Assembly (NCBI GenBank): GCA_030684405.1 | Contig: JAUXYA010000031.1 | Span: 5,483 to 69,482, forward strand | Source of the DNA: Burkholderiales bacterium | Lineage (GTDB): Bacteria > Pseudomonadota > Gammaproteobacteria > Burkholderiales > SG8-41 | Length of the DNA stretch: 64,000 nt | Reading direction: 5' to 3' | Shown here: in pieces, positions 1,904-60,189 of the stretch | How the letters are laid out: every line of letters begins with the position of its first letter | Numbering within the stretch: the stretch's first letter is position 1 | Notes under the pieces: generated by a model | Told to the model about the DNA's origin: nothing | Databases searched by the model: none | The model's input: only the letters and a program-made list of their open reading frames with translations | Program-made: the position numbers and the translations under genes

Positions 1904-1904
1904 C

Positions 1905-2354: not shown

Positions 2355-2361
2355 CAGCGGA

Positions 2362-2802: not shown

Positions 2803-2813
2803 CGCGCCCCGGA

Positions 2814-12218: not shown

Positions 12219-13565
12219 TCAGTGCGCGAACTGCTCGAGCAGCTTGCCATGGATGCCGCCAAAGCCGCCGTTGCTCATCACCAGCACATGATCGCCATCG
12301 CGCGCAGCCGCGGTGATCGCTGTCACCATCTGTCCGAGATCATCGTGCACCGTGGCCTTGTCGCCAAGCGGTACAAGTGCCTCCGCGGCATCCCAACCCA
12401 GCCCTCCGCCGTAGCAATAGACCAGATCAGCGCCGGCAAGGCTGCCGGGCAGGGCCTGGTTCATGACGCCGAGCTTCATCGTGTTCGAACGTGGTTCAAT
12501 CACGGCAAGAATGCGCGCCTTGCCGACCTTGCGTCGCAGCCCGGCGATGGTGGTGGCAATCGCCGTCGGATGATGGGCAAAGTCGTCATAGACCGTGATG
12601 CCGCGTACCGTGCCGCGCACTTCCATGCGCCGCCGCACATTCTTGAATTGCCCCAGCGCATCGACCGCACCAGCCGCCGGCACGCCGGCATGGCGCGCGG
12701 CGGCAATCGCCGCCAGCGCATTCATCCGGTTGTGCGTCCCGAGCAAGTCCCACAGCACACGGCCACGCGAAGCGTTTTCATGGAACACCTCAAAAGCGCC
12801 ACCGTCGTCGGGCTCCCCCGCCTGCCAGGCGCCCTCTCCGCCGAAACGTTCCACCGGCGTCCACGCGCCGCGCGCGAGCACCCGGTCCAGCGCGGGCTCC
12901 GCGCCGTGGGCGACGATCAGCCCGTTGCCGGGCACGGTGCGCACGAGGTGGTGGAACTGGGTCTCGATCGCGGCCAGATCGGGAAAAATGTCGGCGTGAT
13001 CGTATTCGAGATTGTTGAGCACCAGGGTGCGCGGCGCGTAATGCACGAATTTCGAGCGCTTGTCGAAAAATGCGGTGTCGTACTCGTCAGCTTCGATCAC
13101 GAAAAACGGCGTCTCGGTCAATCGCGCCGAGATACCGAAGTTCTGCGGCACGCCGCCGATCAGAAAGCCGGGATGGAGGCCGGCATGCTCGAGAATCCAG
13201 GCCAGCATCGAACTTGTGGTGGTCTTGCCGTGGGTGCCCGCCACCGCCAGCACCCAGTGCCCCTGCAGCACATGTTCGCGCAGCCACTGCGGACCCGACG
13301 CATAGGGCAGGCCACGATTGAGTATGGCTTCCATCAGCGGATTGCCGCGGGTCACCACGTTGCCGATCACGAACAGATCGGGACTAAGGTCCAGCTGATC
13401 TGCCTGGTAACCGGTGATCAGCTTGATGCCCTGTGCCTCAAGCTGGGTGCTCATCGGCGGATAGACATTGGCATCGCAGCCGGTGACCGTGTGGCCCGCG
13501 GCGCGCGCGATCACGGCGAGCCCGCCCATGAAAGTGCCGCAGATGCCGAGGATATGGATGTGCAT
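12219..13565 (-). CDS. mpl: UDP-N-acetylmuramate:L-alanyl-gamma-D-glutamyl-meso-DAP ligase
   Basis: N-terminus MHIHILGICGTFMGGLA is almost identical to that recalled for E. coli Mpl. Mur ligase motif GTHGKTTT. Confidence 0.93.
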   Translation of the reverse strand: MHIHILGICGTFMGGLAVIARAAGHTVTGCDANVYPPMSTQLEAQGIKLITGYQADQLDLSPDLFVIGNVVTRGNPLMEAILNRGLPYASGPQWLREHVLQGHWVLAVAGTHGKTTTSSMLAWILEHAGLHPGFLIGGVPQNFGISARLTETPFFVIEADEYDTAFFDKRSKFVHYAPRTLVLNNLEYDHADIFPDLAAIETQFHHLVRTVPGNGLIVAHGAEPALDRVLARGAWTPVERFGGEGAWQAGEPDDGGAFEVFHENASRGRVLWDLLGTHNRMNALAAIAAARHAGVPAAGAVDALGQFKNVRRRMEVRGTVRGITVYDDFAHHPTAIATTIAGLRRKVGKARILAVIEPRSNTMKLGVMNQALPGSLAGADLVYCYGGGLGWDAAEALVPLGDKATVHDDLGQMVTAITAAARDGDHVLVMSNGGFGGIHGKLLEQFAH

Positions 13566-13593: not shown

Positions 13594-13678
13594 TGAGAAG
13601 TAAGGCGTGAGATGTGAGGAATGTTCCTAATCTTGTCATCCCAAACTGCTTACTCCTTACGCCTCACGCCTCACTCAT
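13594..13678. repeat. inverted heptad-array element (TRAG-type 7-mers)
   Basis: Plus strand reads TGAGAAG TAAGGCG TGAGATG TGAGGAA. After a 28-nt centre, the complementary arm reads CTTACTC CTTACGC CTCACGC CTCACTC. About 20/28 arm positions are complementary. It lies 28 nt upstream of the mpl ATG. Confidence 0.7.
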
Positions 13679-16454: not shown

Positions 16455-17780
16455 ATGGCCGCTCACACTGCAACTCCGCATCGCATCGTCATCGTCGGCG
16501 GGGGCGCCGGCGGCCTTGAACTCGCGACGCGGCTGGGCGACAGTCTCGGCCGCCGCGGGCAGGCACAGATCACGCTGATAGACCGTTCGCGCACCCATTT
16601 ATGGAAGCCGCTGCTGCACGAAGTTGCGGCCGGCAGCATGGACGTCGACCAGCATATGCTTGATTACCTGGCGCAGGCACGCTGGCACCATTTCCGTTTC
16701 CAGCTCGGTGCAATGCGCGGGCTCGATCGCGAACGGCGGATGGTGCGCATCGCGCCAACCCACGACGAGGACGGCCGCCTGCTGATCGGCGAACGCGAGA
16801 TTTCTTACGACACGCTGGTCATCGCCGTCGGTAGCGGCAGCAACGATTTCGGCACACCGGGGGCGCGCGAGCATGCGATCAGCCTCGACACGCCGCCGCA
16901 GGCCGAACGCTTCCACAACCAACTGATCAATGCCTGCATCCGCGCCAATGCCCAGCCCGAGCCGCTGCGCCCGGAGCAACTGCAGGTCGCGATCATCGGC
17001 GCCGGCGCGACCGGTGTTGAACTGGCCGCGGAACTGCACCACACGACGCGCGAACTGGTCGCCTTCGGGCTCGAAAAAATCGATGCCGGGCGTGACACCC
17101 GCATCACGCTGATCGAGGCCGGGCCGCGCGTGTTGCCGGCACTGCCGGAACGGCTGTCGAAATCCACCACAGATCTGCTCGGCGCACTCAATGTGCAGGT
17201 GCTGACCGGCGCCCGGGTCACCGCAGTCGAGCGCGATGGCGTGGTGCTCGCCGACGGCCGGAAAATTCCCGCCGAACTGACGGTCTGGGCCGCCGGCATC
17301 AAGGCGCCGGATTTCCTGAAGGATATTGGCGGCCTGGAAACCAACCGTCTGAACCAGCTGGTGGTGAAGGACACGCTGCAGACCACGCGCGACGCCGATA
17401 TTTTCGCGCTGGGCGACTGCGCGGCCTGTGCCTGGCCCGGTCGCGAACACAATGTGCCGCCGCGCGCGCAGGCTGCACACCAGCAGGCGACGCGGCTCGC
17501 GGACAACCTCGAACGCCGGCTCGCCGGCAAGACACTGCGGCCTTTCACCTACCGTGATTTCGGTTCGCTGGTGTCGCTGGGTGAATATTCAACCGTAGGC
17601 AGCCTGATGGGCGCACTGGTCGGCGGCAGCCTGTTTATCGAAGGCCTGTTTGCGCGTTTCATGTACGTGTCGCTGTACCGTATGCATCTCTACGCGCTGC
17701 ACGGCTTTGCCAAGGTGTTTTTCGACACGCTGGCACGGATGATCACGCGGCGCACCGAGCCACGCGTGAAGTTGCATTAA
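16455..17780 (+). CDS. ndh: type II NADH:quinone oxidoreductase
   Basis: Starts at the internal ATG giving MAAHTATPHRIVIVGGGAGGLELA. A second dinucleotide fold is IIGAGATGVELAAEL. The upstream 116 codons of the ORF are Arg/Pro-rich junk. Confidence 0.9.
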   Translation: MAAHTATPHRIVIVGGGAGGLELATRLGDSLGRRGQAQITLIDRSRTHLWKPLLHEVAAGSMDVDQHMLDYLAQARWHHFRFQLGAMRGLDRERRMVRIAPTHDEDGRLLIGEREISYDTLVIAVGSGSNDFGTPGAREHAISLDTPPQAERFHNQLINACIRANAQPEPLRPEQLQVAIIGAGATGVELAAELHHTTRELVAFGLEKIDAGRDTRITLIEAGPRVLPALPERLSKSTTDLLGALNVQVLTGARVTAVERDGVVLADGRKIPAELTVWAAGIKAPDFLKDIGGLETNRLNQLVVKDTLQTTRDADIFALGDCAACAWPGREHNVPPRAQAAHQQATRLADNLERRLAGKTLRPFTYRDFGSLVSLGEYSTVGSLMGALVGGSLFIEGLFARFMYVSLYRMHLYALHGFAKVFFDTLARMITRRTEPRVKLH

Positions 17781-39831: not shown

Positions 39832-41268
39832 TCAGCCGGCGAGCTTGCTGCGCAAGATATCGTTGACCTGCTGTGGATTGGCCTTGCCGCGGCTGGCTTT
39901 CATCACCTGCCCCACCAGCGAGTTGAAGGCCTTTTCCTTGCCGGCCTTAAAGTCGGCGACCTGCCGGGCATTCGCAGCCAGCACCTGATCGACGATTTTT
40001 TCGATTTCACCGCCGTCTGAAATCTGCTTGAGCCCCTTCGCCGCAATGATCGCGTCGGCATCGCCCTCGCCGGCCCACATGGCATCAAACACGTCTCTGG
40101 CCATCTTGCCGGATATCGTGCCATCGGCGATGCGGTCAACCAGTCCACGCAGCTCCCTTGCCGTAACACGGCTCTGGCCAATGTCCAGAGCCTCCTCGTT
40201 CAGGCGCGCGCTCAGCGCCCCGCTGATCCAGTTGGCGCACAACTTTCCGGTTTTTTCGTCGCCCCCCTCGGCGGCCGTACTGAAATAGTCAGCCAGTTCC
40301 CGGCTTGCGGTCAGCAGGCTAGCATCGTACGGCGTCAATCCGAACTGCGCGCAGAACTGCTCGCGGCGCACCTCCGGCAGCACAGGCATCGCGTCACGTA
40401 CCGCGGCGATGCGCTCGGCAGTCACCTCGAGCGGCAGCAGATCGGGATCCGGAAAATAGCGGTAGTCATGCGCGTCTTCCTTGGTGCGCATCATCCTCGT
40501 TTCACCGGTTTCCGGGTCGAACAACACGGTCGCCTGCTGTATGGTGCGGCCATCCTCGATTTCGCAGATCTGCCAACGCACTTCGTATTCAATGGCCTGC
40601 TGCAGGAAGCGGAAGCTGTTCAGATTCTTGATTTCACGGCGGGTGCCGAGTTCCTGCGTACCGGCAGGACGCACCGACACGTTCGCGTCGCAGCGGAACG
40701 AGCCTTCCTGCATGTTGCCGTCGCAGACATCGATCCAGCGCACCAACGCATGCAGGGCCTTCGCGTAAGCCACTGCCTCATCCGCCGACCGCATATCGGG
40801 TTCGGTGACGATTTCCAGCAAGGGCGTACCGGCGCGGTTGAGGTCGATGCCGGTCTGCCCGCGAAAATCCTCGTGCAGCGACTTGCCGGCGTCCTCCTCG
40901 AGGTGGGCGCGCGTCAGGCGCACGGTTTTTTCGGCATCGCCCACCTGGATGGTGACGCTGCCGCCCTCGACGATCGGCTTCTCGAACTGGCTGATCTGAT
41001 AACCCTTGGGCAGGTCGGGATAGAAATAATTCTTGCGCGCAAAAATGGAGGGCGAATTGATTTTCGCGCCGACAGCGAGACCGAAGCGGATTGCGCGCTC
41101 GACTGCGCCGGTGTTGAGCACCGGCAATACACCCGGCAGCGCGATGTCGACGCCGCAGGCCTGGGTATTGGGTGCGGCGCCGAAGGCCGTCGGCGCGCCC
41201 GAGAAAATCTTCGACACCGTCGACAGCTGCGCATGGGTCTCCAGCCCGATGACCACTTCCCATTTCAT
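39832..41268 (-). CDS. gatB: Asp/Glu-tRNA amidotransferase subunit B
   Basis: 478 aa: [15 protein letters not shown]... Confidence 0.97.
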
Positions 41269-41340
41269 CGCTCATCACTCCGGGACGGGCGGACACTTGC
41301 CATGATGATTTTCAGCTCATCGCTCATCATTCATCGCTCA

Positions 41341-41345
<5 letters not shown>
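41264..41345. repeat. heptad-repeat element in the gatA-gatB spacer with a 16-nt direct duplication
   Basis: TTCATCGCTCATCACT occurs at 41264-41279 (contains the gatB ATG) and at 41330-41345 (contains the gatA TGA). Between them is GCTCATC GCTCATC ATTCATC GCTCATC in 7-nt phase. Confidence 0.7.
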
Positions 41346-47664: not shown

Positions 47665-48767
47665 TGCCGATCATCCTGCGGCGCCTGCTGATCTTCACGA
47701 CCCGGCATATCGACGGCGTGCTGCTGTCGGCTATCCTGCTGCTGATGTTCACCGGCCTGGTGGCCCTGCTCAGCGCGGCCAACGGCAGCTATGTCAGGCT
47801 CTCCGGCCAGCTCATGAACATGATGGTCGCGCTGGGAGTGATGTGGGTTTTTGCCAACATCCCGCCGCATTATCTGATGCGGATGGCGGTTCCACTGTTC
47901 CTCACCGGCTGTGCGCTGCTCGTTGGCGTCGCCGTGGCCGGTGAGGTGGTCAATGGCGCACGGCGCTGGCTGAACATCGGCGTCACCCGCATCCAGCCCT
48001 CGGAGTTGATGAAAATTGCGGTGCCGCTGATGCTCGCCTGGTACTTCAACCGCAACGAGGCCTCGCTGAAGCTGCGCAACTACGCGATTGCCGCGCTGAT
48101 GCTGGCAATCCCGGCCGCGCTGATCCTGCGCCAGCCCGACCTCGGTACTGCGCTGCTGATCAGTGCCAGCGGCGGTTACCTGATTTTCCTCGCCGGCCTG
48201 CCGTGGCGGATCATACTGACGCTGGCCGTTGCCGGGGGTGCGAGCCTGCCACTGCTGTGGTCGGTAATGCATGATTACCAGCGCCAGCGTGTGCTGACAC
48301 TGCTCGACCCGACCACCGATCCACTGGGCTCCGGTTACCACACCATCCAGTCGACGATCGCCGTCGGCTCGGGTGGTATTCTCGGCAAGGGCTGGATGAA
48401 CGGTACCCAGACCCACCTTGACTTCATACCGGAGCGCACCACCGATTTCATTTTTGCGGTGTACTCCGAGGAATTCGGCTTGCTCGGCAACGCCGTGCTG
48501 CTCGCGTTGTACCTGTTCCTGATCGGCCGCGCGATGGTGATCACCGCCAATGCGCCCACGCTGTTCTCGCGGCTGCTTGCGGGCGCCATCACACTGACCT
48601 TCTTCACCTACGCCTTCGTCAACATGGGCATGGTGTCGGGCATTCTGCCCGTAGTGGGTGTACCACTGCCGCTGGTCAGCTACGGCGGAACTTCGCTGGT
48701 TTCGATCTGTCTCGGTTTCGGTATCCTGATGAGCATCAATACCCACAAGAAACTGGTTCAGACATGA
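47664..48767 (+). CDS. rodA: SEDS-family peptidoglycan polymerase RodA
   Basis: 367 aa: QPSELMKI, DFIFAV..EEFGL, PLPLVSYGGTS. Confidence 0.95.
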   Translation: MPIILRRLLIFTTRHIDGVLLSAILLLMFTGLVALLSAANGSYVRLSGQLMNMMVALGVMWVFANIPPHYLMRMAVPLFLTGCALLVGVAVAGEVVNGARRWLNIGVTRIQPSELMKIAVPLMLAWYFNRNEASLKLRNYAIAALMLAIPAALILRQPDLGTALLISASGGYLIFLAGLPWRIILTLAVAGGASLPLLWSVMHDYQRQRVLTLLDPTTDPLGSGYHTIQSTIAVGSGGILGKGWMNGTQTHLDFIPERTTDFIFAVYSEEFGLLGNAVLLALYLFLIGRAMVITANAPTLFSRLLAGAITLTFFTYAFVNMGMVSGILPVVGVPLPLVSYGGTSLVSICLGFGILMSINTHKKLVQT

Positions 48768-48771
48768 TTAA

Positions 48772-48851
48772 AAGCAGTGAGGAGCGCGGAGTGATGAGTG
48801 ATGAGCGGGAAACGGGAGGGTGCGTTCATCGCTCATCGTTCATCACTGCTT
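48772..48851. repeat. inverted heptad-array element in the rodA-rlpA spacer
   Basis: AAGCAGTGA...TCACTGCTT closing stem. Left arm TGAGGAG CGCGGAG TGATGAG TGATGAG; right arm CATCGCT CATCGTT CATCACT, in 7-nt phase. Confidence 0.7.
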
Positions 48852-48859
48852 CGCTTCAA

Positions 48860-49825
48860 GTGTGCCCTTGTCATCGTTGGGCGGCGGTTTTTCTGCTTGC
48901 CGCCCTTCTCACCGCCTGCGGCAGCGCCCCGAAGCGCGGCGGCATCGAACGCGCGCCAGGCGGCAGCACGGAAGCTCCGACACGCGGCGGCGGTTATTAC
49001 CTCGACGATGGACCCGGCGCCAATGCGCCAGCGAATCTCGACGTAATTCCCGATGCCGTGCCGAGGGTCGAACCGCTGCATCGCGGCACCCAGCGTCCGT
49101 ACACTGTCATGGGCCGCAGTTACACGCCGATGACCCGACTCGCGCCCTACAGGGCGCGCGGCATCGCCACCTGGTACGGCCGGCGCTATCACGGCAAGTC
49201 AACAGCCTCTGGCGAGCCCTATGACATGTACGCGATGACCGCTGCGCATACTGTGTTGCCGATTCCGAGCTACGTCCGGGTCACCAACGTCGCCAATGGC
49301 CGCTCGGTGGTGGTACGCGTCAACGACCGCGGCCCCTTCATCGGCGACCGCCTGATCGACCTCTCCTACACTGCGGCGCACCGGATCGGCATCCTCGGCG
49401 CCGGCAGCGGCATGGTTGAAGTGGAGAGCATCATCCCCGGCATCACACCTGCTGCAGTGCCGCCCGTAGCCACCGCAGCTGCACCCGCACCTGTCGTCGA
49501 AACCGCGGCGCTCCCGCCCGCGGCGCCGGTTGCAGTTGCACCCCTGTCTGCGAGTACTCCAGTCCCAGCACCTGCCACCACGACAGCCATCGCGGGCGGT
49601 AGCTGGCTGCAGTTTGGCGCCTTTGGCGTGCAGGCCAATGCCGAAACCTACCTCGCGCGACTGCAGTCCCAGGCCGAGTGGCTGGCCGGCACGCTGCGCA
49701 TCCACCACGGCGACGGCCTCTACCGCGTGCAGGCGGGACCCTATGCCAGCGATGCCGCCGCGCGTGATGCAGCGGAACGCGCCGGCCAGACGCTGGGCGC
49801 GAAGCCGGTGGTCATCAGCCGCTGA
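48860..49825 (+). CDS. rlpA: septal ring lytic transglycosylase RlpA with C-terminal SPOR domain
   Basis: Start proposed at GTG 48860, giving lipoprotein signal (M)CPCHRWAAVFLLAALLTAC. DPBB core (ATWYG...HGKSTASGEPYDMYAMTAAH...VRVNDRGPF). PA-rich linker and SPOR-like end. The longest ORF (48764) runs through the repeat. Confidence 0.8.
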   Translation: MCPCHRWAAVFLLAALLTACGSAPKRGGIERAPGGSTEAPTRGGGYYLDDGPGANAPANLDVIPDAVPRVEPLHRGTQRPYTVMGRSYTPMTRLAPYRARGIATWYGRRYHGKSTASGEPYDMYAMTAAHTVLPIPSYVRVTNVANGRSVVVRVNDRGPFIGDRLIDLSYTAAHRIGILGAGSGMVEVESIIPGITPAAVPPVATAAAPAPVVETAALPPAAPVAVAPLSASTPVPAPATTTAIAGGSWLQFGAFGVQANAETYLARLQSQAEWLAGTLRIHHGDGLYRVQAGPYASDAAARDAAERAGQTLGAKPVVISR

Positions 49826-50822: not shown

Positions 50823-52142
50823 TCACAGCACGTAACGCGCGAGGTCCTCGCTCTGTGCCAGGTCCTTCAGCCGCGCATCGACATAGGCCGCATCGATGGT
50901 CACCGTCTCCTTGCGCCGGCCGGCGTTGAAGGACAGGTCCTCGAGCAGGCGCTCCATCACCGTGTGCAGCCGCCGCGCGCCGATGTTCTCGGTGCGTTCG
51001 TTGACCTGCCAGGCGATTTCCGCCAGCCGCTTCACTGCATCGGGCGTGAACACCAGTTCGACATCTTCGGTTTTGATCAATGCCTCGTACTGGCGAATCA
51101 GGCAGGCGTCGGTGCTGGTGAGGATGCACTCGAAATCGTCGACCGTGAGATTCTGCAATTCGACGCGGATCGGCAGGCGGCCCTGCAGTTCGGGAATCAG
51201 GTCCGAGGGCTTCGACAGGTGGAATGCGCCGCTGGCGATGAACAGGATGTGGTCGGTCTTGATCATTCCGTACTTGGTGGTCACTGTCGTGCCCTCGACG
51301 AGAGGCAGCAGGTCACGCTGCACGCCCTGGCGCGAAACGTCGGCGCCCGACACCTCGGAACGGGTGGCAACCTTGTCGATTTCATCAATGAACACGATGC
51401 CGTTCTGCTCAACATTGGTGACGGCCTCGAGCTTCAACTCCTCGTCGTTGACGCGCTTTGCCGCCTCCTCGTCGATCAGCTGCTTCATCGCCTCGGCGAT
51501 TTTCATTTTGCGCATCCTGCGCCTGCCCGCGCCCAGGTTCTGGAACATGCCCTGCAGCTGCGAAGTCAGGTCTTCCATGCCCGGCGGGGTCATGATTTCC
51601 ATCTGCGCCGGCGCGGCGGCGAACTCGATCTCGATTTCGCGCACATCAAGTTCGCCCTCGCGCAGCATCTTGCGGAATTTCTGGCGTGTCGCCGACTCGG
51701 TATCGGGAACGCCATCGCGTGCCGGCGTCAGCAGCGCGTCGAGTACGCGCTCCTCAGCCCCATCCTGAGCCTGGTGCCTGACCCGGCGCATCGCCTCGAC
51801 GCGTGCGTCCTTGATCGCCGCATCAACCAGGTCGCGGATGATGGTGTCGACATCACGCCCGACATAACCCACCTCCGTGAATTTGGTGGCCTCGACCTTG
51901 ATGAACGGCGCATTGGCGAGCCGCGCCAGGCGCCGCGCGATCTCGGTCTTGCCGACCCCGGTCGGCCCGATCATCAGGATGTTCTTCGGCGTGATCTCCT
52001 GGCGCAGCGGGTCCGGCACCTGCTGCCGCCGCCAGCGGTTGCGCAACGCAATGGCCACCGCGCGCTTGGCGGCGTTCTGCCCGACAATATGTTTGTCGAG
52101 CTCGTGGACGATTTCCTGCGGGGTCATGGGGGTCATGGGCAT
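50823..52142 (-). CDS. hslU: ATP-dependent protease ATPase subunit HslU
   Basis: 439 aa: [16 protein letters not shown], Walker [16 protein letters not shown]. Three possible ATGs (52142, 52136, 52127), none with an SD. Confidence 0.97.
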
Positions 52143-52218
52143 GAGCGGTGAGCGGTGAGCGGTGAGCGGTGAGCGGTGAGCGGTGAGCGGTGAGCGGTGA
52201 GCGGTGAGCGGTGAGCGG
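52142..52218. repeat. perfect heptanucleotide tandem repeat (TGAGCGG)x11
   Basis: Counted directly from the sequence: 11 uninterrupted units over 77 bp. The first T is the last base of the hslU start codon complement. Confidence 0.97.
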
Positions 52219-52243
52219 TGGATTGGACGGCTTCTGTTACTGT

Positions 52244-52285
52244 CGGTTCACTACTTACTGCTTACCCTTCACCGCTCACTGTTCA
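52244..52285 (-). repeat. array of six stop-initiated heptads following the hslV stop
   Basis: Minus-strand reading: TGAACAG TGAGCGG TGAAGGG TAAGCAG TAAGTAG TGAACCG. Partly complementary to the CCGCTCA tract downstream. Confidence 0.7.
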
Positions 52286-52289
52286 CTGA

Positions 52290-52841
52290 CTAATCCAGCA
52301 CCTCAATCAGATGCTGCTGGTTGGTGTAAATGCAGAGATCGCCGGCAATCTCCAGCGACTTCTTGACGATGTCGGCGGGTGCAAGATCGGTATTTTCAAG
52401 CAGTGCACGGGCCGCGGACTGGGCATAGGCACCACCGCTGCCGATGGCAACCAGACCGAATTCCGGCTCCAGCACGTCGCCATTGCCGGTGATCACCAGC
52501 GAATGTTCGCGGTCAGCCACTAACAGCATGGCTTCCAGGCGCCGCAGCATGCGGTCGGTGCGCCAGTCCTTGGCCAATTCCACTGCGGAGCGCATCAGGT
52601 TGCCCTGGTGCTTTTCCAATTTCGATTCGAAGCGCTCGAACAAGGTGAATGCGTCGGCGGTGCCGCCCGCGAATCCGGCAAGGATGCGGTCCTGGTAGAG
52701 GCGGCGGATCTTGCGCGCGGTGGCCTTGATCACGATGTTGCCCAGTGTCACCTGGCCATCGCCGCCGAGCGCCACGTGGTTACCGCGCCGGACGGAAAGA
52801 ATGGTCGTGCCGTGAAAAACTGTATCGGTCATGGGATGCAA
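52290..52841 (-). CDS. hslV: ATP-dependent protease peptidase subunit HslV
   Basis: [27 protein letters not shown], with a short N-terminal extension as recalled for other betaproteobacteria. An alternative ATG is at 52832. Confidence 0.95.
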
Positions 52842-52931
52842 GCTCTTGATTATTGGGAGGATGCAGCGGTACGGGGCTGGCCTGCCCCAGTCAGATGAGG
52901 GCGGTCACCCCCATTTCAACCCGGTTGCGGA

Positions 52932-53654
52932 TCAGGACTCCAGACGGAACGATACCGGCACACGCACCCAGGCTTCAACGTTTTCCACACCGCGCCGTGC
53001 CGGTGCAAAACGCCAATCCTTCACCGCATCCAGCGCCGCGCGGTCGAGCGCACGCGAGCGACTCGACTGGTCGACCTCGACTTTCAATGGCGTGCCGTCG
53101 CGCCCGACCAGCACCCGCAGCAGCACTGTGCCCTCTTCGCCGTTGCGCCGCGCAAGCGCGGGATAAGCCGGTGGCGGATTGCGCAGGTACGCCGCATTGA
53201 AAGCGGGCGGCGTGATCACGGGCGGGGTCGCTTTCGCAATCGGCGCGGAAGATGTTGCGGGAGGAGATGGAGATGGCTCCACCGATGAGGGTGCAGCTGC
53301 GGACGCAGGTGCAGGCGCAGCTGCGGTTGCGAGTTCCGGCACCGGGGCAACGGGCAGTACCGCGGCTTCCCGCGCGATCACCGGCTCTTTCTTGCGCGGC
53401 ACTGACGGAGATGTGGCAGGAACAGCCGGTGCTGCCGCCTTCCGTGGCAGCGCTGTCGCCGGTGGCTCGGATGCCACCATCACTACATCCAGCAGCGGCA
53501 TCGCGGGTGCGGGTGCGGGTGCGGGCACTGACACCCGCCATCCCGGCACAAAGATCAGCAGCAGGCCATGCGCAGCCACGCTCGCCAGCAGGCAGATGGC
53601 CAGCGTGTGCCGGGAAATGCGAAATCGGTCGGCCATGGGGGTCGCGCGGATCAA
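52932..53654 (-). CDS. tonB: energy transducer TonB
   Basis: 240 aa with a TM anchor, a Pro/Ala-rich spacer and a C-terminal domain (PPAYPALARRNGEEGTVLLRVLVGRDGTP...). Confidence 0.8.
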   Translation of the reverse strand: MIRATPMADRFRISRHTLAICLLASVAAHGLLLIFVPGWRVSVPAPAPAPAMPLLDVVMVASEPPATALPRKAAAPAVPATSPSVPRKKEPVIAREAAVLPVAPVPELATAAAPAPASAAAPSSVEPSPSPPATSSAPIAKATPPVITPPAFNAAYLRNPPPAYPALARRNGEEGTVLLRVLVGRDGTPLKVEVDQSSRSRALDRAALDAVKDWRFAPARRGVENVEAWVRVPVSFRLES

Positions 53655-53787
53655 GGGAGGGCATTATCCGGCAGATCGGCGACGCCCGACAAACCGCCGC
53701 GGGCCCGACTGCAAGCCCGCGACGGCAGGAACATTACTAAGAGCGCACACCAGGCAGCGCAACGCTCATTTCATCCTGTCAGGCACT

Positions 53788-55887
53788 CTAAAACTGCCCG
53801 CGCAGACCGAGCAGCGCGCTGCGCCGGCCGAGTGGCGCGACGTCCTTGAGGAAAGACACGTGGTTGCGTGCTTCCTCGTTGAGCAGGTTGATCCCGCGCA
53901 GGAAAGCTTCCAGACGCAGGCCATTCGCCGGCAGGCGGTAGGTCAGCGCGGCATTGAGCATCGTGTAACCGTCGGTAGGGCGCTCACCGGTGGCCACGCG
54001 GTCCTGGCCGTCATGCACAGTCGCATCGACGCGGGCACTGAGGCGGTCGCGGCGATACTCCACGCCGACGCCATAACGCCAGGGCGCGATGCGCGGCAAC
54101 GGCCGTCCGTTACTCCGGTCGTCGGCGCGCACATGACTTGCATGGAGCAGCAGATCCAGGGTGCCCCCGCGTTCGAACATGCGGAAGCGCGCCTCGCCCT
54201 CGATGCCGCGGAAACGCGCCGACACCGCACGATAGGCAAACTCCGGCAGGATTTCCTCGCCGGTGTTGAGCGACGTGCCGTCGCCGGCATCGGCCGGATT
54301 CAGTTCGCCGTCTGCACCGCGGGTGTTGCCGCTGTCGAACAGCCCGAGGTAATTGCTGAAACGGTTGTTGAACACGGTAATGCTGCCCGAGTGTTTCCCG
54401 GATTTCAGGCGCAGGGAAATGTCGATGGCCTTCGACTTCTCCTTGCCGAAAGTGCTGTTGCCCACTTCGTAAACGCCGGTGGCAGCATGCGGGCCGTTGG
54501 CGTAGAGCTCGTAATAGGTCGGTGCGCGCTCGGTGTAGCTGCCGTTCACGGCCAGCGCCAGACCCGGCATGAAGCCCCACACCGCACCCAGCGCGCCGCT
54601 GTTGCCGCTGAAATTGCGCGTCTGCGCAGCACCGAAACGCGGATCGACGGCGCCAAACGGTACGGCGCCGCCGCCTTCGCTGCCGACCTCGGTGCGTTCG
54701 TGGCGGCCGCCGAAAGTCAGCTTGAAGCTGCCGAGCGGCAATTCCTCGAAGAAAAACACCGACTTTGCGTTGGTACTGGTCCCCGGAACAAAGGCCTCGG
54801 CACCCAGCGCCGAAAAATCGAAATCCCTTAGCTGCAGGCCGATCGCGCCGCGCAACGGGCCTATTTCACCGTGCACCGCCTCGACATGCAGATCCTTGCC
54901 CTTGTTGCGGAAACGTGTCGCCGCAACACCCGCATCGAGCTCGGTATGTTCGTAATCGGTGTGGCCCATCTTGAATTTCAGGGAACGGATCGCCTGTCCC
55001 AGTTCGCGCACTTCGCCGGCGAGGTCCCAACGGCTGCTCTGCATGTCGATGGTCACGTCGGGTTCAGCCACAGTGCCATACCTGGTGTTGAATCCGGAAC
55101 GCGAGATGCCGACATAACCCTGGGCCCAGGTATGCGACAGGCCGATGGCGCCACCGTCGGATCGCGACGCGCTGTTGGGCAAAACGCCCTCCGCTTCGAC
55201 CGGCTGGGGATCAGCGGCACGCAAGCGCGCCGATCGCGCGAAACCCTTGATGCGCAGGTCATCGGTGTCGCGGGTATGGACATCGGCGTGCAGGGCAAGG
55301 CTGCCGTTGCCGGCCTCGAACACGATACCCGTTGCCTTCTCGCGCGCAGCGCCGCCGAAGCGCGTCTCGACACGGCCTGTGACGCCACGGATCGCGGCCT
55401 GGGGAATGCGGTTGTCGATGACGTTGACTACGCCGCCAACGGCATTGCCCCCATAAAACAGGGCTGCAGGCCCACGCACTACCTCGGCTCGCTCGACGAC
55501 CAGTGGGTCGACGGCGACGGCGTGGTCGAAACTGAGCGACGAGGCATCCAGTGTGCCCGCGCCGTTCTGCAGTATGCGGATGCGGTCGCCATCGAGGCCG
55601 CGGATGACCGGACGGCTGGCATTGGGACCGAAGCCGGTGGCCGCGACGCCGGGCAAGCCGTCGAGGGTGTCGCCCAGCGTGTTGCCACGCCGCTGGAACA
55701 ATTCGTCACCCTGCAGCAGGGATGCCGGGGAAGCGAGTTCAAACAGGTCACTGCCCAGCGGGTTGCCGGTGACCACAACTTCGGGCAGCGTCGTCGCCGG
55801 TGGGGCGACTTGCGCATGTACGGTTGCTGCATGCACAGCAACCGCCATCGCGGCCAGCGCAAAAGACTGGCGTTTCAATTTCAACAT
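53788..55887 (-). CDS. TonB-dependent outer-membrane receptor, ZnuD/OprC-like metal receptor (metal not assignable)
   Basis: Starts at the internal ATG with signal peptide MLKLKRQSFALAAMAVAVHAATVHA. Plug motifs (IRGLDGDRIRILQNG, SFDHAV, VVRGPAALFYG). HTDYEHTE loop. Terminal RGQF. Confidence 0.9.
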   Translation of the reverse strand: MLKLKRQSFALAAMAVAVHAATVHAQVAPPATTLPEVVVTGNPLGSDLFELASPASLLQGDELFQRRGNTLGDTLDGLPGVAATGFGPNASRPVIRGLDGDRIRILQNGAGTLDASSLSFDHAVAVDPLVVERAEVVRGPAALFYGGNAVGGVVNVIDNRIPQAAIRGVTGRVETRFGGAAREKATGIVFEAGNGSLALHADVHTRDTDDLRIKGFARSARLRAADPQPVEAEGVLPNSASRSDGGAIGLSHTWAQGYVGISRSGFNTRYGTVAEPDVTIDMQSSRWDLAGEVRELGQAIRSLKFKMGHTDYEHTELDAGVAATRFRNKGKDLHVEAVHGEIGPLRGAIGLQLRDFDFSALGAEAFVPGTSTNAKSVFFFEELPLGSFKLTFGGRHERTEVGSEGGGAVPFGAVDPRFGAAQTRNFSGNSGALGAVWGFMPGLALAVNGSYTERAPTYYELYANGPHAATGVYEVGNSTFGKEKSKAIDISLRLKSGKHSGSITVFNNRFSNYLGLFDSGNTRGADGELNPADAGDGTSLNTGEEILPEFAYRAVSARFRGIEGEARFRMFERGGTLDLLLHASHVRADDRSNGRPLPRIAPWRYGVGVEYRRDRLSARVDATVHDGQDRVATGERPTDGYTMLNAALTYRLPANGLRLEAFLRGINLLNEEARNHVSFLKDVAPLGRRSALLGLRGQF

Positions 55888-55981
55888 GATGTTCTCCAAT
55901 AGACGTGACAGGCCGAGCGCAGCCTCAAGGGCGCGCTTGATCCGGAAAAAAAGGTATGACCGGCGGTAGCCGGGAATGCGT

Positions 55982-56362
55982 CTAGGAGAGTGCGGGTGGC
56001 GCGCGGGAATCGTAAGGAACCGTGGAGGTTCCTGCTGTTGCGACACTGCCCGCAGCAATCAGTACCGCGCCGGCAGCGTCAGTAGCGACGCTGCGGTAAC
56101 CACCGGGGGCGCCGCCGAGGACTTCGCTGTAAAGAAGGTCGAATCCGCAGTCTGCTGACCACTCGCCGAAGGGGGGCTCATGGTCATGCTCATGGGCATG
56201 ACCATGAGCATGCGCGGCATGCGCCTCCGCTACGCCATGATGGGCAACATGCAGCAGCGCATGAGTCAGCGCGCCATGCTGGGCAAACAGCAGCAGCGCG
56301 ATCAGCGCCGCATGCAGCAGGCGCGGCGGGCGCGGCGGGCGCCGCAGCCAGGCATTGCTCAC
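55982..56362 (-). CDS. His-rich small protein, DUF2946-like
   Basis: 126 aa with an N-terminal hydrophobic segment, then HVAHHGVAEAHAAHAHGHAHEHDHE and a single Cys. Confidence 0.5.
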   Translation of the reverse strand: MSNAWLRRPPRPPRLLHAALIALLLFAQHGALTHALLHVAHHGVAEAHAAHAHGHAHEHDHEPPFGEWSADCGFDLLYSEVLGGAPGGYRSVATDAAGAVLIAAGSVATAGTSTVPYDSRAPPALS

Positions 56363-56365
56363 TGC

Positions 56366-56875
56366 TTACCTGCCAACGGCTGCGGCATCGGTCAGCCGGT
56401 AATAGAGCCCCATCTCGTCATTGCGCAGCAGCGTGAGGCGCCCGGAGATGACGATCGGCTCGAAACCGTATTTCACCGGCGTCTTGGCCCGTACCTCGAC
56501 CACCTGCTCGGGGCCGCCGGGCATGCAGAAGGCGCAAGTCGGCGGCAGGGCCACCAGCAGAAAACGTTTCTGCCGATCACCCATTTCCAGCGGCATCATG
56601 AAACCCTGCAGCTTCACTTCCTGGCGATCAAGCGCAGCCACGCTCTTGCCGAAGTCGGGAATGAAGCGGTCCTTCTGCTTCAGTGTCTTCACGTCGGCCA
56701 GCGTCTTCCACGACACCACGCCCTTGATCTCGGGCAGCGGCTTCGCCGCATAAGGCGAAGGCGGCAGGTTGGCGTCAGGATCGCGCTTCATCAACTCGCC
56801 GGAACCCGGCTGAAAACCCTGGGCAGCCGCCGGAATGGCCGCTGCCAACATCATCGCAATCATCCAGGTTTTCAT
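56366..56875 (-). CDS. DUF3299-like periplasmic protein
   Basis: 169 aa with a signal peptide and ...VKLQGFMMPLEMGDRQKRFLLVALPPTCAFCMPGGPEQVVEV... as recalled for DUF3299 partners of MacB-type ABC systems. Confidence 0.7.
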   Translation of the reverse strand: MKTWMIAMMLAAAIPAAAQGFQPGSGELMKRDPDANLPPSPYAAKPLPEIKGVVSWKTLADVKTLKQKDRFIPDFGKSVAALDRQEVKLQGFMMPLEMGDRQKRFLLVALPPTCAFCMPGGPEQVVEVRAKTPVKYGFEPIVISGRLTLLRNDEMGLYYRLTDAAAVGR

Positions 56876-56910
56876 AAAATTCCTTTATAATCAAGTACTT
56901 AAAAAATTAG
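56873..56910 (-). promoter_or_regulatory. AT-rich leader motif copy 2 (upstream of DUF3299 gene)
   Basis: Minus-strand reading: CTAATTTTTTAAGTACTTGATTATAAAGGAATTTTATG. The plus strand contains AATCAAGTACTTA, a perfect match to the IHF consensus WATCAANNNNTTR. Confidence 0.4.
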
Positions 56911-57183
56911 TCAGTGGCGATGCTTCATGCCGCAGTATTTCCCGATCGCCAGTCCTTTGCAATCCTTGGCGAGCTGGGCGTGGCACTCCTTCTCCGACTT
57001 CCCGCCTTCCAGGCATTTCGCCGCGTTGAGGTGGGCCTCGGCCATCGCGCGGTGATCGGCAACGTCTTTCTTGATTTCCGCGGCGCTGTGCGGCTTATCG
57101 CCCTTCTGCTGTGCATGGACCGGCAGGCCTCCAAATATGATGAGGGCGGCGATAAGCGGTGCTGCGAACAATTTCAGCTTCAT
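56911..57183 (-). CDS. small periplasmic Cys/His-containing protein, unknown function
   Basis: 90 aa with AAGGAA SD and a signal peptide. The mature part has 4 Cys and several His (HRAMAEAH...KCLEGGKSEKECH...DCKG...YCGMKHRH). Confidence 0.5.
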   Translation of the reverse strand: MKLKLFAAPLIAALIIFGGLPVHAQQKGDKPHSAAEIKKDVADHRAMAEAHLNAAKCLEGGKSEKECHAQLAKDCKGLAIGKYCGMKHRH

Positions 57184-57231
57184 GTTCTTTCCTTTCGATG
57201 TAAAAAAACAGCATAAAAATTTCCAGTAACT

Positions 57232-58446
57232 TCAACCCCGGGCCAGCGTGCCGGCGATATCAGTGCGATAGGCGCGCCAGGCCGGCAGCAGCGCGGCCAA
57301 GATGCCGGTGGCCAGCGCCAGCGCGACGACCCAGAGTTCTTCCATCACCCAGGCAAACCCGGTGATCTCGATCTGCTGCGCCGCTTTCAGCACATGGCCC
57401 AGAACTTCCGCCATCGCATGACCGAGCACCAAGCCCAGCGCGGCACCGGCGGCCGCCAGCAACAGGCCCTCGAACAGCAGCAGCAGCAGCAACCGGCGCG
57501 GACTCGCGCCCAGCGTGCGCATCACCGCCAGGTCGTAACGCCGCTCGTTGAGCGCGTTGTAGAGCGCGATGAACACGCTCAGACCGGCGCTGAGGATCAG
57601 CACCAGCGCAAAGGCGCGCAGCACATCGACACCGACGCCGATCAGGCTGAACAGCCGTGCGGTCTCGTACGCCGGTGACGCCGCCTGCATGCCGGTGTTG
57701 TTGTTGATGTAACGCGGCAGGATGGCCACCGCCAGCGGAGAGGAATACTGCAGCAGCAGCGCAGTGAATTCCTTCTCGTCATCGCCGAGTTGCTGCTCGA
57801 TATTGGTCACGTCCTTGATGTCATGGTGCTCGGCATGCACCACCCATACGCTCTGGTAGGACGTCAGTACCAGACGGTCGAGTACGCTGCCGCTGCGTTC
57901 CAAAACGCCGACGACCCGATACGGATGATCTTCATGGGCATGCCCGCCACTGTCGCCGAGACCGTGCACGCCGTGGAATTCGGCGCCGACGCCGAAGCCG
58001 GTGCGCGCGGCGACTTCGGCGCCGAGCACCGCCTCCATCGGCGCCTGCCACATCCGGCCGGCGGCGATTTTTGCACCGTAGTGCGCCACATAATCCGGCG
58101 TCGTGCCAACGATGCGATAGCCGCGGTAACTGTCGCCGAGCGCCAGCGGAATGGCTTTTTTCACCATGCGGTGGCGCGAAATCTCCTGCGCTTCCTTCCA
58201 GGAGATGTTCCCGGTCGGCACATCGATGTGGTAGATCGCCGACAGGATGATCTGCATCGGACTGCCCTTGGCGCCGACGGCGAGGTCGATGCCGCGCGCG
58301 TCGCGCTGCATGCGCTCCTCGAGCTGGTGGGTCGTCAGCAGCAGCAACACGATGGTGCCGACACCCAGCGCCAGCAGCAGCACATTGAGCAGCGTCGCCA
58401 GCGGCCGCGCGCGCATGTACGAAAAACCGACGGTTGCGATATTCAT
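57232..58446 (-). CDS. ABC transporter permease, FtsX/MacB type
   Basis: 404 aa with 4 TM segments and a large periplasmic domain between TM1 and TM2. Confidence 0.85.
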   Translation of the reverse strand: MNIATVGFSYMRARPLATLLNVLLLALGVGTIVLLLLTTHQLEERMQRDARGIDLAVGAKGSPMQIILSAIYHIDVPTGNISWKEAQEISRHRMVKKAIPLALGDSYRGYRIVGTTPDYVAHYGAKIAAGRMWQAPMEAVLGAEVAARTGFGVGAEFHGVHGLGDSGGHAHEDHPYRVVGVLERSGSVLDRLVLTSYQSVWVVHAEHHDIKDVTNIEQQLGDDEKEFTALLLQYSSPLAVAILPRYINNNTGMQAASPAYETARLFSLIGVGVDVLRAFALVLILSAGLSVFIALYNALNERRYDLAVMRTLGASPRRLLLLLLFEGLLLAAAGAALGLVLGHAMAEVLGHVLKAAQQIEITGFAWVMEELWVVALALATGILAALLPAWRAYRTDIAGTLARG

Positions 58447-59081
58447 GCCCGCGCCCCCAGATCGTAATGCTGTGCGACACGCGACTTGATGCGCTGGTCA
58501 TGGGTGGCGATCAGCAGCGTCGCATTGCAGGCTGTGGCCTGCGCCTGCAGCAACTCCAGCGCCTGCAGGCAGCGCGCGTCGTCAAGGTTGGAGGTCGGCT
58601 CATCGGCGAGCAGCAGCTGCGGACGGTTGACCACCGCGCGTGCGATGGCGACACGCTGCGCCTGGCCGAAAGACAGTTCGTGCGGCTTCGCGCTGCCCTT
58701 GTCCGCAAGGTCGAGTCCGGCGAGCACCTCATCGACGCGCTGCCGGTCCTGCGGCAGTCCGGCGAGGTACTGCGCGAGCATCAGGTTGTGTGCGACGTCG
58801 AGGCTCGGGATCAGGTGCAGCCGCTGCAGCACGATGCCGATGTGTTGCCCGCGGAAGCGGTCCAGCAGCTGCGCGCCCAGCGCGCCGAGATCCTGTCCCG
58901 CCACGGTTACCGTGCCGGCCGCCGGCCGCAGGATGCCGGCCAGCGCATGCAGCAGCGTGGTCTTGCCGCTGCCCGAAGGCCCCAGCAGCAGCCAGTGCTC
59001 GCCTTGTGCGGCCTGCCAGGCATCGACGTGCAGCACTTCGGCCTCATCGTAGGCATGGCTTACGCCTTGCAATTCGAACAA
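58443..59081 (-). CDS. ABC transporter ATP-binding protein
   Basis: 212 aa: Walker A GPSGSGKTT, signature LSFGQAQRV, Walker B LLLADEPT. Confidence 0.9.
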   Translation of the reverse strand: MFELQGVSHAYDEAEVLHVDAWQAAQGEHWLLLGPSGSGKTTLLHALAGILRPAAGTVTVAGQDLGALGAQLLDRFRGQHIGIVLQRLHLIPSLDVAHNLMLAQYLAGLPQDRQRVDEVLAGLDLADKGSAKPHELSFGQAQRVAIARAVVNRPQLLLADEPTSNLDDARCLQALELLQAQATACNATLLIATHDQRIKSRVAQHYDLGARA

Positions 59082-59083
59082 AA

Positions 59084-59470
59084 CTATTCCTCCTCAATGC
59101 GAGTCCAGACCGGAAAGGGATCAGGATATGAACTCCAGGCAGCCGGGCCCTGTGCCATCTCGACTGTGTTCAGAAGGCAAGCCTCCAGAGACATTTCGAT
59201 GGCTTCCCGGTCCATGCCGATACCGATAAACACCAGCTCCTGCCGGCGATCGCCCCAGGTTTCGACCCACTTGGCATCGATTAGTTTGCGGTATTCCTCG
59301 TCCTGCGGCCAGTTTTCGCGTTCGACCGCCACCCACCACAGTCCCGCGGCTGCATGCCGGCAGACGCCGCCGGCCTGCGACCACGATGCGGCGATGTCCA
59401 TGCGCGAGGCCAGCCAGACGAACATGCCCTGGCCACGCCTCTCGATTCTCAGGTAGCTGATGGAATTCAA
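59084..59470 (-). CDS. stand-alone CobW C-terminal domain protein (COG0523 C-domain only)
   Basis: 128 aa. TTG start with a GGGAG SD, 8 nt after the ZIP stop. GMFVWLASR...WSQAGG...WWVAV...WPQDEE...WGDRRQELVFIGIGMD...LEACLL...PDPFPVW matches the C-terminal domain pattern of CobW/YeiR/ZigA-type GTPases. No G-domain is present. Confidence 0.65.
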   Translation of the reverse strand: MNSISYLRIERRGQGMFVWLASRMDIAASWSQAGGVCRHAAAGLWWVAVERENWPQDEEYRKLIDAKWVETWGDRRQELVFIGIGMDREAIEMSLEACLLNTVEMAQGPAAWSSYPDPFPVWTRIEEE

Positions 59471-59478
59471 TGGCTCCC

Positions 59479-60189
59479 TCAGTGTGAATGCAGGAACATA
59501 TGGGAAAGCAGGATGGTGCCGATACCCGCCGCGATGAACACGATCTGCAGCACGCTGCTGCGAATATCGCTGCGACGATGCATCTCCGGGATCAGATCGG
59601 CCACGGCGATGTAGATGAAACTTGCGGCGGCGAGCACCAGCACGTACGGCGTCGCCTCGCGCGCGTCATCCAGGGCAAAGTAGCCCAGCACACCGCCGGC
59701 AATCGACATCAGGCTGGAGGCAAAATTGAGCAGCAGCGCTTTCCGGCGGCTGTAGCCGGCGTTCAGCAGCACCATGAAATCACCCACTTCCTGCGGAATT
59801 TCGTGGGCGATGATGGCCAGTGTGGTCGCCACACCCAGAGCGGTGTCGGTCATGAACGCGGCAGCGATCAGGATGCCGTCGACGAAATTATGGAAACCGT
59901 CACCGATGACGATCAGCATTCCGGTCCGGCTGTTGTGGCCAGTGCTCTCGCCAACGTGATCATGGCCGTGGCGCCACAGCGCCGCCTTCTCCAGCAGGAA
60001 AAATCCTAGCAGTCCGGCGAGCGTTACCGCGAACAAACCTTCGATGCTGTCAGCCTGGGAAAACGCCTCCGGCAGCAGGTGCAGGAAGGCGGCGGCGAGC
60101 AGGACACCCGCGGCGTAACTCACCATCGGCGCGAGCCAGCGCGAGAGCAACGCAAACGACAGCAACCCGGCAGCCAGCAGGCTCAGCAC
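59479..60189 (-). CDS. ZIP-family divalent metal transporter
   Basis: HEIPQEVGDF and HNFVDG motifs. The first canonical start is GTG 60189, but conserved-looking TM1 residues continue in frame upstream to the stop at 60250-60252. Confidence 0.85.
   Translation of the reverse strand: MLSLLAAGLLSFALLSRWLAPMVSYAAGVLLAAAFLHLLPEAFSQADSIEGLFAVTLAGLLGFFLLEKAALWRHGHDHVGESTGHNSRTGMLIVIGDGFHNFVDGILIAAAFMTDTALGVATTLAIIAHEIPQEVGDFMVLLNAGYSRRKALLLNFASSLMSIAGGVLGYFALDDAREATPYVLVLAAASFIYIAVADLIPEMHRRSDIRSSVLQIVFIAAGIGTILLSHMFLHSH

Follow-up and report, generated by a model that had tools for sequence, protein, structure and literature searches.

What is the tandem repeat that fills the gap between hslV and hslU in an uncultured Burkholderiales bacterium, and is it a device of that operon? 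We analyzed a 64,000-nt stretch of contig JAUXYA010000031.1 (hereafter the window), in which the spacer between these two genes contains eleven perfect copies of a 7-nt unit, TGAGCGG, facing a second array of similar units on the other strand. The spacer is probably a heptanucleotide simple sequence repeat (SSR) built as an inverted pair with its G-rich arm first, and a member of a genome-wide class found across phyla rather than a regulator specific to hslVU. Taken this way, the hslV-hslU array is a further instance of the slippage-prone 7-base intergenic repeats that have already been described, and not a device special to the operon.

Anatomy and turnover of the spacer element

The element and the genes that it separates lie on the minus strand, and are listed here with the evidence for each.

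50823 to 52136, minus strand: hslU (NCBIfam HslU equivalog, E = 5e-199)
52120 to 52142, minus strand: hslU initiation region, with three ATGs (52142, 52136 and 52127) and a 9-bp repeat, GGGGTCATG, x2.2 (sequence; Tandem Repeats Finder [TRF], 52120-52139, x2.2)
52142 to 52218, minus strand: 3' arm, perfect (CCGCTCA)x11 in the sense direction, equal to (TGAGCGG)x11 on the plus strand (TRF)
52219 to 52243, minus strand: loop or spacer of 25 nt, ACAGTAACAGAAGCCGTCCAATCCA (sequence; homologous loop caatagcagaagccatccaatcca in two relatives, L383 and L384)
52244 to 52292, minus strand: 5' arm, seven G/A-rich heptads on the sense strand (sequence and pattern matches)
52290 to 52832, minus strand: hslV, 180 aa from the ATG at 52832, stop codon TAG at 52292-52290 (NCBIfam HslV equivalog, E = 2.8e-90)

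In the sense direction, the hslV TAG is followed by TCAG, six heptads led by TGA or TAA (52285-52244), 25 unique nt, (CCGCTCA)x11 (52218-52142), and an ATG whose first letter is the last A of the tract; 147 nt separate the TAG (52292-52290) from the hslU ATG. The units of the 5' arm are, in order, TAGTCAG, TGAACAG, TGAGCGG, TGAAGGG, TAAGCAG, TAAGTAG, and TGAACCG. Relatives with 97-99% identical HslV have, as their hslV stop, the TGA of a first unit TGAGCAG, so that TAGTCAG in the window is a diverged first unit and the heptads of the spacer begin right at the hslV stop codon. For the opposite arm, TRF reported TGAGCGG x11.3 at 52142-52220 (100% matches, score 158), which is the longest period-7 array in the roughly 1 Mb formed by the window and its relatives (set A, below). 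The 77-nt tract is C-rich and G-poor in sense (57% C, 14% G) and by inspection holds no stop and no start codon in any frame. We saw no purine run resembling a Shine-Dalgarno (SD) motif 5' of the hslU ATG in the spacer sequence. Tandem 7-nt units exceeded chance in the window, with pattern counts of 14 versus 1.5 and 14 versus 0.0 in shuffles; the pattern TRAN4 x4 was the one with 14 matches and 0.0 expected.

The original prediction for this locus, made from the letters of the window, had described the perfect (TGAGCGG)x11, the opposing TGA/TAA heptads, and the 147-nt gap, which the sequence and TRF bear out, as well as the stop-free sense direction of CCGCTCA and the missing purine-rich SD motif before hslU, both of which agree with inspection. 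Its 9-bp duplication with three ATGs is also real (TRF, x2.2), but the MTPMTPQ N-terminus that this repeat encodes is conserved in relatives; the duplication is therefore old and not fresh, and only the ATG at 52142 is extra. The hslU start is likely the ATG at 52136-52134, which by homology corresponds to the start used in the relatives.

Several assemblies carry the array. The 180-aa HslV occurs exactly on four other contigs (two NCBI metagenome-assembled genomes and two JGI metagenomes), each with this same spacer and with 11, 11, 11, and 10 copies of the unit. Five independent assemblies, counting the window, thus have 11, 11, 11, 11, and 10 copies. Two of those four contigs terminate a few bases past the array, and several contigs break at the array or within it. 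An assembly artefact, a possibility that the original prediction had raised, was ruled out, as five assemblies have the array and homologous arrays accompany 97-99% identical HslV. The difference between 10 and 11 copies also means that the copy number is not fixed.

Among relatives with 94-99% identical HslV (whose loci carry L numbers here), heptads stand directly 5' of the hslU ATG in all, with differing units. The element of L383 and L384 is clearly homologous to that of the window, with the same loop and with the TGA of the first heptad as hslV stop; L384 has (CCGCTCA)x9, and in L385 it is the 5' arm that is expanded, as (TAAGCAG)n. L208-L211 have TGAGGAG/TAAGGAG units facing CTTACTC/CTGACCC units. 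Three loci with identical HslV differ in length, with (CGCTCAT)x8 in L213 and x6 in L214 and L215. The proposal that the array is prone to slippage is supported by these comparisons: 10 versus 11 copies between near-identical assemblies, 9 in L384, and 8 versus 6 for the related (CGCTCAT)n. In L382 (99% identical HslV), an IS3-family insertion sequence (IS) with an HTH_Tnp_1 OrfA occupies 1502-2291, in the heptad array after its second unit. It parts hslV from whatever comes next in that strain. The picture from these sequences is one of long-lived occupancy of a site, with rapid turnover of whole units and concerted evolution within each arm.

We also fetched 80 metagenomic relatives with 79-96% identical HslV, in 64 of which the spacer could be measured. 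In most of the 64, and in most of the more distant ones (79-90% identical HslV), only 8-30 nt lie between the two genes, which fits tight coupling. Heptad or octad hairpins occur in about a dozen lineages, being of the same architecture but with unrelated unit sequences, such as TAATTGG... / ...TTACCAG (L125), TGAGCAG... with (CGCTTAT)x6 (L141), and ...TAAGCGG with (CAATCAC)x5 (L188). The period is not strictly seven, since L129 (~790-890) and L137 (3066-3226) have 8-nt units (GTGAACGA, GTGAAGGA) or mixtures of 7- and 8-nt units in the hslV-hslU spacer. One further relative, L167, has 1.3 kb between hslV and hslU (1880-3208), apparently with opposite-strand ORFs, so that the operon is split.

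Heptad arrays at other loci and in the literature

The original prediction treated the array as belonging to the hslVU operon, and this did not hold: similar arrays occur in three other gaps of the window, of which two are spacers of conserved operons.

13594 to 13673, both strands: heptads in the gap between a Mur-ligase gene (minus strand) and a cobW-family gene (plus strand) (pattern; Pfam of flanking genes)
41266 to 41343, minus strand: heptads TGAGCGA, TGAATGA, TGAGCGA, TGAGCTG in the gatA-gatB spacer, starting from the gatA stop (pattern, sequence)
48778 to 48850, plus strand: opposed heptads GTGATGA GTGATGA GCGG ... TTCATCG CTCATCG TTCATCA between rodA and rlpA (fold; Pfam of flanking genes)

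The 72-nt gatA-gatB spacer has a second short copy, TGAGCGA TGAA, adjoining the gatB ATG; it is direct and not inverted, and the fold of this element predicts no hairpin. For the rodA-rlpA element, folding predicts an almost perfect hairpin (-46.9 kcal/mol, z = -3.75), and heptad hairpins with other units are found at this site in all the close relatives with 94-99% identical HslV. At 13594-13673, the plus strand reads TGAGAAG TAAGGCG TGAGATG and faces TGAGGCG TGAGGCG TAAGGAG TAAGCAG on the minus strand, in a divergent gap. The four window elements have no common sequence beyond their 7-nt periodicity and purine-rich, TRA-like units. As the units differ (TGAGCGA, TGATGAG, TGAGGCG/TAAGGAG), the elements are not copies of one mobile sequence.

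Arrays with this very unit are also widespread. A scan with one genome per species found at least 120 stretches of (TGAGCGG) with three or more copies, in many phyla. The groups with (TGAGCGG)x3 among the matches listed include Gemmatimonadota, Actinomycetota, Bacteroidota, Chloroflexota, Planctomycetota, Verrucomicrobiota, Acidobacteriota, Myxococcota, and beta- and gammaproteobacteria. Arrays among these listed matches are interspersed with TGAGCAG, TAAGCGG, and TGAACGG units, and very often have an opposed array of the CCGCTCA/CCGCTTA type 10-100 nt downstream. According to the original prediction, identical arrays at many loci, regardless of gene context, would mark a generic repeat. This is largely what was found, but the scattered arrays are similar and not identical.

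To describe the class, we used TRF on two collections: set A, 1.0 Mb chosen via HslV only (the window and its relatives), and set B, 0.86 Mb of loci from the TGAGCGG pattern scan. For gene calls, we trained a codon-usage model on annotated relatives and tested it against one held-out annotated locus (L208); two callers based on positional GC content were discarded for missing genes or calling the wrong strand. About 19% of the bases of set A are non-coding, and 40 of its 55 period-7 arrays (73%) are intergenic; the flanking genes are co-directional in 34 cases, convergent in 4, and divergent in 0.

A strand rule governs the arrays within 80 nt of a gene end: after a stop codon the sense strand is the G-rich one, and before a start codon it is the C-rich one. 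It holds for 17 of 18 arrays in set A when the hslVU spacers are left out (P = 1.4e-4), and for 36 of 41 in set B without TGAGCGG-like units (P = 8e-7). Roughly half of the arrays have an inverted partner, and these pairs are G-first by 16:0 in set A and 78:5 in set B. Unpaired arrays obey the rule as well (38 G versus 11 C after stops, 20 C versus 3 G before starts). The anchoring at gene ends is close, with 76 of 87 G-rich arrays 3' of a gene lying at most 10 nt from the called stop codon. An arm usually has 4-5 units; the start-proximal arm was the expanded one in 18 cases versus 9, which is not significant (P = 0.12).

Two candidate properties of the class were rejected. The original prediction emphasized that every unit begins with a stop codon. 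Such units are present in the hslVU array, but across the class stop-codon phasing exceeds the expectation from letter composition by a modest margin only: stop-bearing units number 15 of 26 against 10.8 +/- 2.1 expected and 34 of 71 against 28.2 +/- 3.3 (permutation of unit letters). In a viral collection, stop-free heptads of the same composition formed arrays (18, 4, and 51 stretches) as often as stop-bearing ones (9, 18, 9, and 13). The second candidate was TGAGCGG as a special cross-phylum motif, and permuted controls of the same composition were equally common in the viral collection.

Several known repeat systems resemble these elements to different degrees. Cyanobacterial short tandemly repeated repetitive (STRR) heptamers, in Calothrix and Anabaena, are tandem intergenic arrays dispersed genome-wide like the heptads here, with other units and in another phylum; we know of no report of a paired G-first architecture for them. 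Repetitive extragenic palindromic sequences and bacterial interspersed mosaic elements (REP/BIME) of enterobacteria and pseudomonads are likewise intergenic hairpins in operons and between convergent genes, and effects on mRNA stability and polarity could plausibly be modeled on them. However, REPs repeat a single palindrome in near-identical form and go together with REP-associated tyrosine transposases (RAYTs), whereas heptad elements are tandem, with locus-specific units that vary by whole units, and the four elements of the 64-kb window are not such near-identical copies. SSRs that act in phase variation, located within an ORF or a promoter spacer where a change in units turns expression on or off, also differ, as the array here is intercistronic and outside both ORFs, with no sigma-70-like promoter found near it.

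The closest match is with the G-rich intergenic heptameric SSRs of Xanthomonas (GGGAATC) and Nostoc (GGGGAYT) described by Rehm et al. 2015 (PMC4692102). These lie between aligned ORFs, are rare between divergent ORFs, and, up to 50 nt from stops and starts, obey the same strand rule (PMC4692102). Like the hslVU element, they consist of tandem 7-nt units in variable copy number (2-26 in their case), include many convergent plus- and minus-strand pairs with possible stem-loops, occur inside operons (pecE-pecF), and keep their position among related species while length and sequence vary (PMC4692102). The hslVU element has the features of heptameric or long SSRs (LSSRs): tandem 7-nt units, a non-coding site, the strand rule, and variation in copy and sequence at a conserved position. 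It differs from the published arrays in that its units carry stop codons and no GGG, in being heterogeneous between loci of one genome, and in its host, an uncultured Burkholderiales bacterium. The G-quadruplex (G4) interpretation of Rehm et al. rests on G3 runs (PMC4692102); units of the TGAGCGG type have only GG, short of at least four runs of at least three G per array, and that rationale is therefore not applicable to them.

LSSRs with units of 5-11 nt were surveyed by Mrazek 2007, as summarized in PMC4679880. In that summary, heptanucleotides outnumber the other classes in many large genomes, those of Burkholderia and Xanthomonas among them; LSSRs are ascribed to polymerase slippage, and units that are not a multiple of three are kept out of coding DNA. 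The survey is statistical, and neither a paired G-first architecture nor anchoring at stops features in its summaries (PMC4679880). The TAACTGA direct repeats of marine Beggiatoaceae, cyanobacteria, and Bacteroidetes (MacGregor 2015, PMC4679880) share with the hslVU element stops in all frames, an intergenic site, downstream genes without an SD motif, and a patchy spread across phyla. They overlap the ends of upstream ORFs and sit directly before start codons (PMC4679880). However, they have one fixed unit that is almost never inverted and forms no hairpin (PMC4679880), and their stop-bearing strand is sense just before the start, where hslVU has the C-rich, stop-free complement. With different units and a stop-free C-rich strand before the hslU ATG, the hslVU element falls outside the TAACTGA family. 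A literature search for TGAGCGG-type arrays or Burkholderia heptameric repeats gave no specific description. The original prediction had not recognized a described class of element, and this view was superseded, as intergenic heptameric SSRs have been published together with their inverted pairs, their placement at stops and starts, and their strand rule (PMC4692102; PMC4679880).

Competing explanations and predicted effects on hslU

Under the explanation that we favor, the heptanucleotide SSR, replication slippage would generate, grow, shrink, homogenize, and renew the arrays. A 7-nt unit shifts the reading frame, which would explain why arrays are confined to non-coding DNA and take up the space between a stop and the next start. 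At hslVU, a G/A-rich array begins at the hslV stop, followed by a short loop and by a complementary C-rich array ending at the hslU start; (CCGCTCA)x11 would be a recent expansion and homogenization of the 3' arm, far past the usual 4-5 units. A probable consequence is that the element sets apart two cistrons that are 8-30 nt apart in most relatives. The mRNA would contain a register-slipping stem-loop and then an open leader before the hslU ATG, and in such a model copy number could modulate, rather than switch, hslU translation or its initiation, or polarity between hslV and hslU. No stop codon contains C, and every start codon and SD motif requires G. A C-poor array would therefore be harmless or protective after a gene, and a G-poor array would be inert before one; the strand rule may reflect translation in this manner. 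Alternatively, the rule may come from a pressure against leaving C-rich RNA exposed, where it would load Rho.

Predicted RNA structures describe what the element might do in the transcript. The spacer RNA has a minimum free energy (MFE) of -51.7 kcal/mol (z = -2.5), with the MFE structure at a frequency of 0.002 in the ensemble. The predicted hairpin is long and imperfect, with many alternative registers, as the original prediction proposed, and the base of its stem joins the hslV stop and the hslU start. In a computed series of copy numbers, stability levels off at about 6 units, near the length of the 5' arm, and extra units add unpaired C-rich leader: for the 25 nt before the ATG, the predicted probability of being unpaired is about 0.28 with 3-6 units and reaches 0.58 with 11. 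As the 3' arm, with 11 units, is longer than the 5' arm, about 30-33 nt of G-poor leader without start or SD motif are predicted to be unpaired before the hslU ATG. No intrinsic terminator was predicted (0 terminator-like sites in 51900-53100), the 3' arm being followed by AUGCCCAUGACC, and Rfam gave only generic long-hairpin matches (miRNA precursors) at 16-35 bits against thresholds of 71-168. An argument for selection at the RNA level from G-U asymmetry was dropped: of 12 hslVU spacers folded, 5 were better in sense and 7 in antisense, so that no consistent G-U bias toward the sense strand appeared.

A regulator dedicated to hslVU would have evolved its array and hairpin to set the HslU:HslV translation ratio, with copy number as a tuning knob. 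Translational coupling is one conceivable route, in which ribosomes that terminate at the end of hslV open the base of the stem and so expose the hslU ATG. Heptads do lie right before the hslU ATG in every relative with 94-100% identical HslV, the predicted stem base unites the stop and the start, predicted leader accessibility varies with copy number, and hslU, having no SD motif, needs some unusual route of initiation. We nonetheless consider a dedicated regulator, and this route with it, quite unlikely, since similar elements are found in unrelated spacers (gatA-gatB, rodA-rlpA) and across phyla, the unit sequence is unconserved even among 96-97% relatives, a spacer of 8-30 nt suffices in most relatives, and one strain tolerates an IS element in the spacer. 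A REP/BIME-like mobile palindrome, spread by a RAYT-type transposase and serving as mRNA stabilizer or attenuator, would account for intergenic hairpins that are enriched between co-directional or convergent genes and depleted between divergent ones, with several copies per 64 kb. It would not account for arms that are internally tandem-repetitive and vary by whole units, for unrelated units at orthologous sites, or for four window elements that share only periodicity and a purine-rich, TRA-like composition; no REP consensus was seen in the 64-kb window, and we regard this origin as very improbable.

The two remaining alternatives concern the strands of the repeat. If the element were a G4 or another non-B-DNA regulatory repeat, a G4 on the G-rich strand would affect transcription or translation, and its positional and strand rules are indeed identical to those of the proposed G4-forming heptamers (PMC4692102), with a typical arm of about 4-5 units. 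However, the GG runs of TGAGCGG are 5 nt apart and would give weak two-tetrad G4s at best, and many units without G runs (TAATTGG, AAGTCGA, TGATGAG) obey the same strand rule, so there is little chance that G4 formation explains it. A Rho-loading (rut) or polarity site would instead have the C-rich, untranslated 77-nt tract recruit Rho between the two genes, so that transcription of hslU hinges on the hairpin or on ribosome loading. The composition and length of the tract by inspection, the ~33 nt predicted unpaired at 11 copies, and the near-absence of C-first hairpins, as expected if early-exposed C-rich RNA is harmful, all point this way; unpaired C-rich arrays right before starts are nevertheless common and evidently tolerated, and a Rho site has a correspondingly slim probability.

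Several observations also weigh against the SSR explanation. L001, a strain with 98.2% nucleotide identity, still has 11 copies, which might be steadier than expected of a free-running microsatellite, and the retention of heptads at the hslVU site throughout the 94-100% subclade could indicate selection rather than inertia. On the RNA side, the z-score of the spacer fold is only -2.5, and the window spacer folds much better in antisense than in sense (-91.8 versus -48.9 kcal/mol); together with the inconsistent G-U bias, this lends no support to selection on sense RNA structure. All functional effects on hslU are thermodynamic predictions of modest effect size. Distances to start codons are approximate, as the home-made codon model was validated on one annotated locus only.

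A broader reading, which we put forward as speculation with the odds clearly against it, is that G-first heptad hairpins and their unpaired relatives are pan-bacterial, self-renewing intercistronic insulators whose polarity is selected via translation and not via G-quadruplexes. The C-poor arm would supply stops in all frames at the end of the upstream gene, and the G-poor arm would supply the downstream gene with a leader free of starts, SD motifs, and structure. Slippage in copy number would tune the expression ratio of the cistrons, and the published G4 account of the strand rule would be incidental.

The heptad element explains the SD-less spacer of about 150 nt in an otherwise tightly coupled protease operon, the contig breaks at this position, and the disagreement of gene callers on the hslU start. 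In many phyla, the strand rule and G-first polarity hold for many units that are unable to form G-quadruplexes, which suggests that the rule known from Xanthomonas and Nostoc applies generally, with translation, Rho, or the mode of origin as candidate causes; its generality for non-G4 units is the most interesting residue of the analysis. The hslVU, gatAB, and rodA-rlpA spacers of the clade offer natural copy-number series for the question whether such repeats tune cistron ratios.

Flanking genes and minor observations

A TTG at 52841, upstream of the ATG at 52832, is an alternative start for hslV. The 183-aa HslV that it would give had no match in an exact look-up, and the 180-aa form matched on the 4 other contigs. 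The neighborhood of hslVU (52900-60000 in the window) is conserved in L001, L205, L208, and L213. One side holds tonB, a TonB-dependent receptor, a DUF3299 gene, a MacB-like ABC exporter, several cobW-family GTPases, and Fur-family and ZIP genes, and the other side has DUF2946 and LpqE-like genes. The Fur-family and ZIP genes and their neighbors are suggestive of zinc homeostasis.

The rodA-rlpA hairpin (48764-48870 in the window) overlaps the 5' end of the longest rlpA ORF. The start of rlpA is likely a GTG near 48860, just 5' of the lipoprotein signal peptide. In relatives, an ATG lies within the hairpin loop, so the N-terminus of rlpA is unstable in annotation and perhaps in reality.

The L141 locus (Ga0194128_10000048; 20.5 kb) is rich in heptads, with 14 period-7 TRF rows in 20 kb (e.g. 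4335-4426, 9822-9906, 12973-13062, and 17482-17566). Several are inverted pairs with stop-free units (AAGTCGA/CTTTCGC). Some of its perfect arms are only partly complementary to their partners (AAGGCGG versus TTTCGAC), which suggests that the arms were homogenized independently.

A third orthologous site, downstream of a gene that apparently ends in ...KKLVQ(T) on the reverse complement, has heptad arrays with differing units in three relatives (L125 ~11045-11071, L141 12973-13062, and L191 4220-4323). An unrelated second palindromic repeat (GTCATCCCGAGGAGCG.AAGCGACGAGGGATCTAC...) follows or lies between heptad arrays in Gemmatimonadales and one other locus, so that two repeat families are nested; its sites are L005 ~2216-2320, L007 ~6665-6760, L023 ~4705-4800, and L124 after 7546-7566 (reverse strand).

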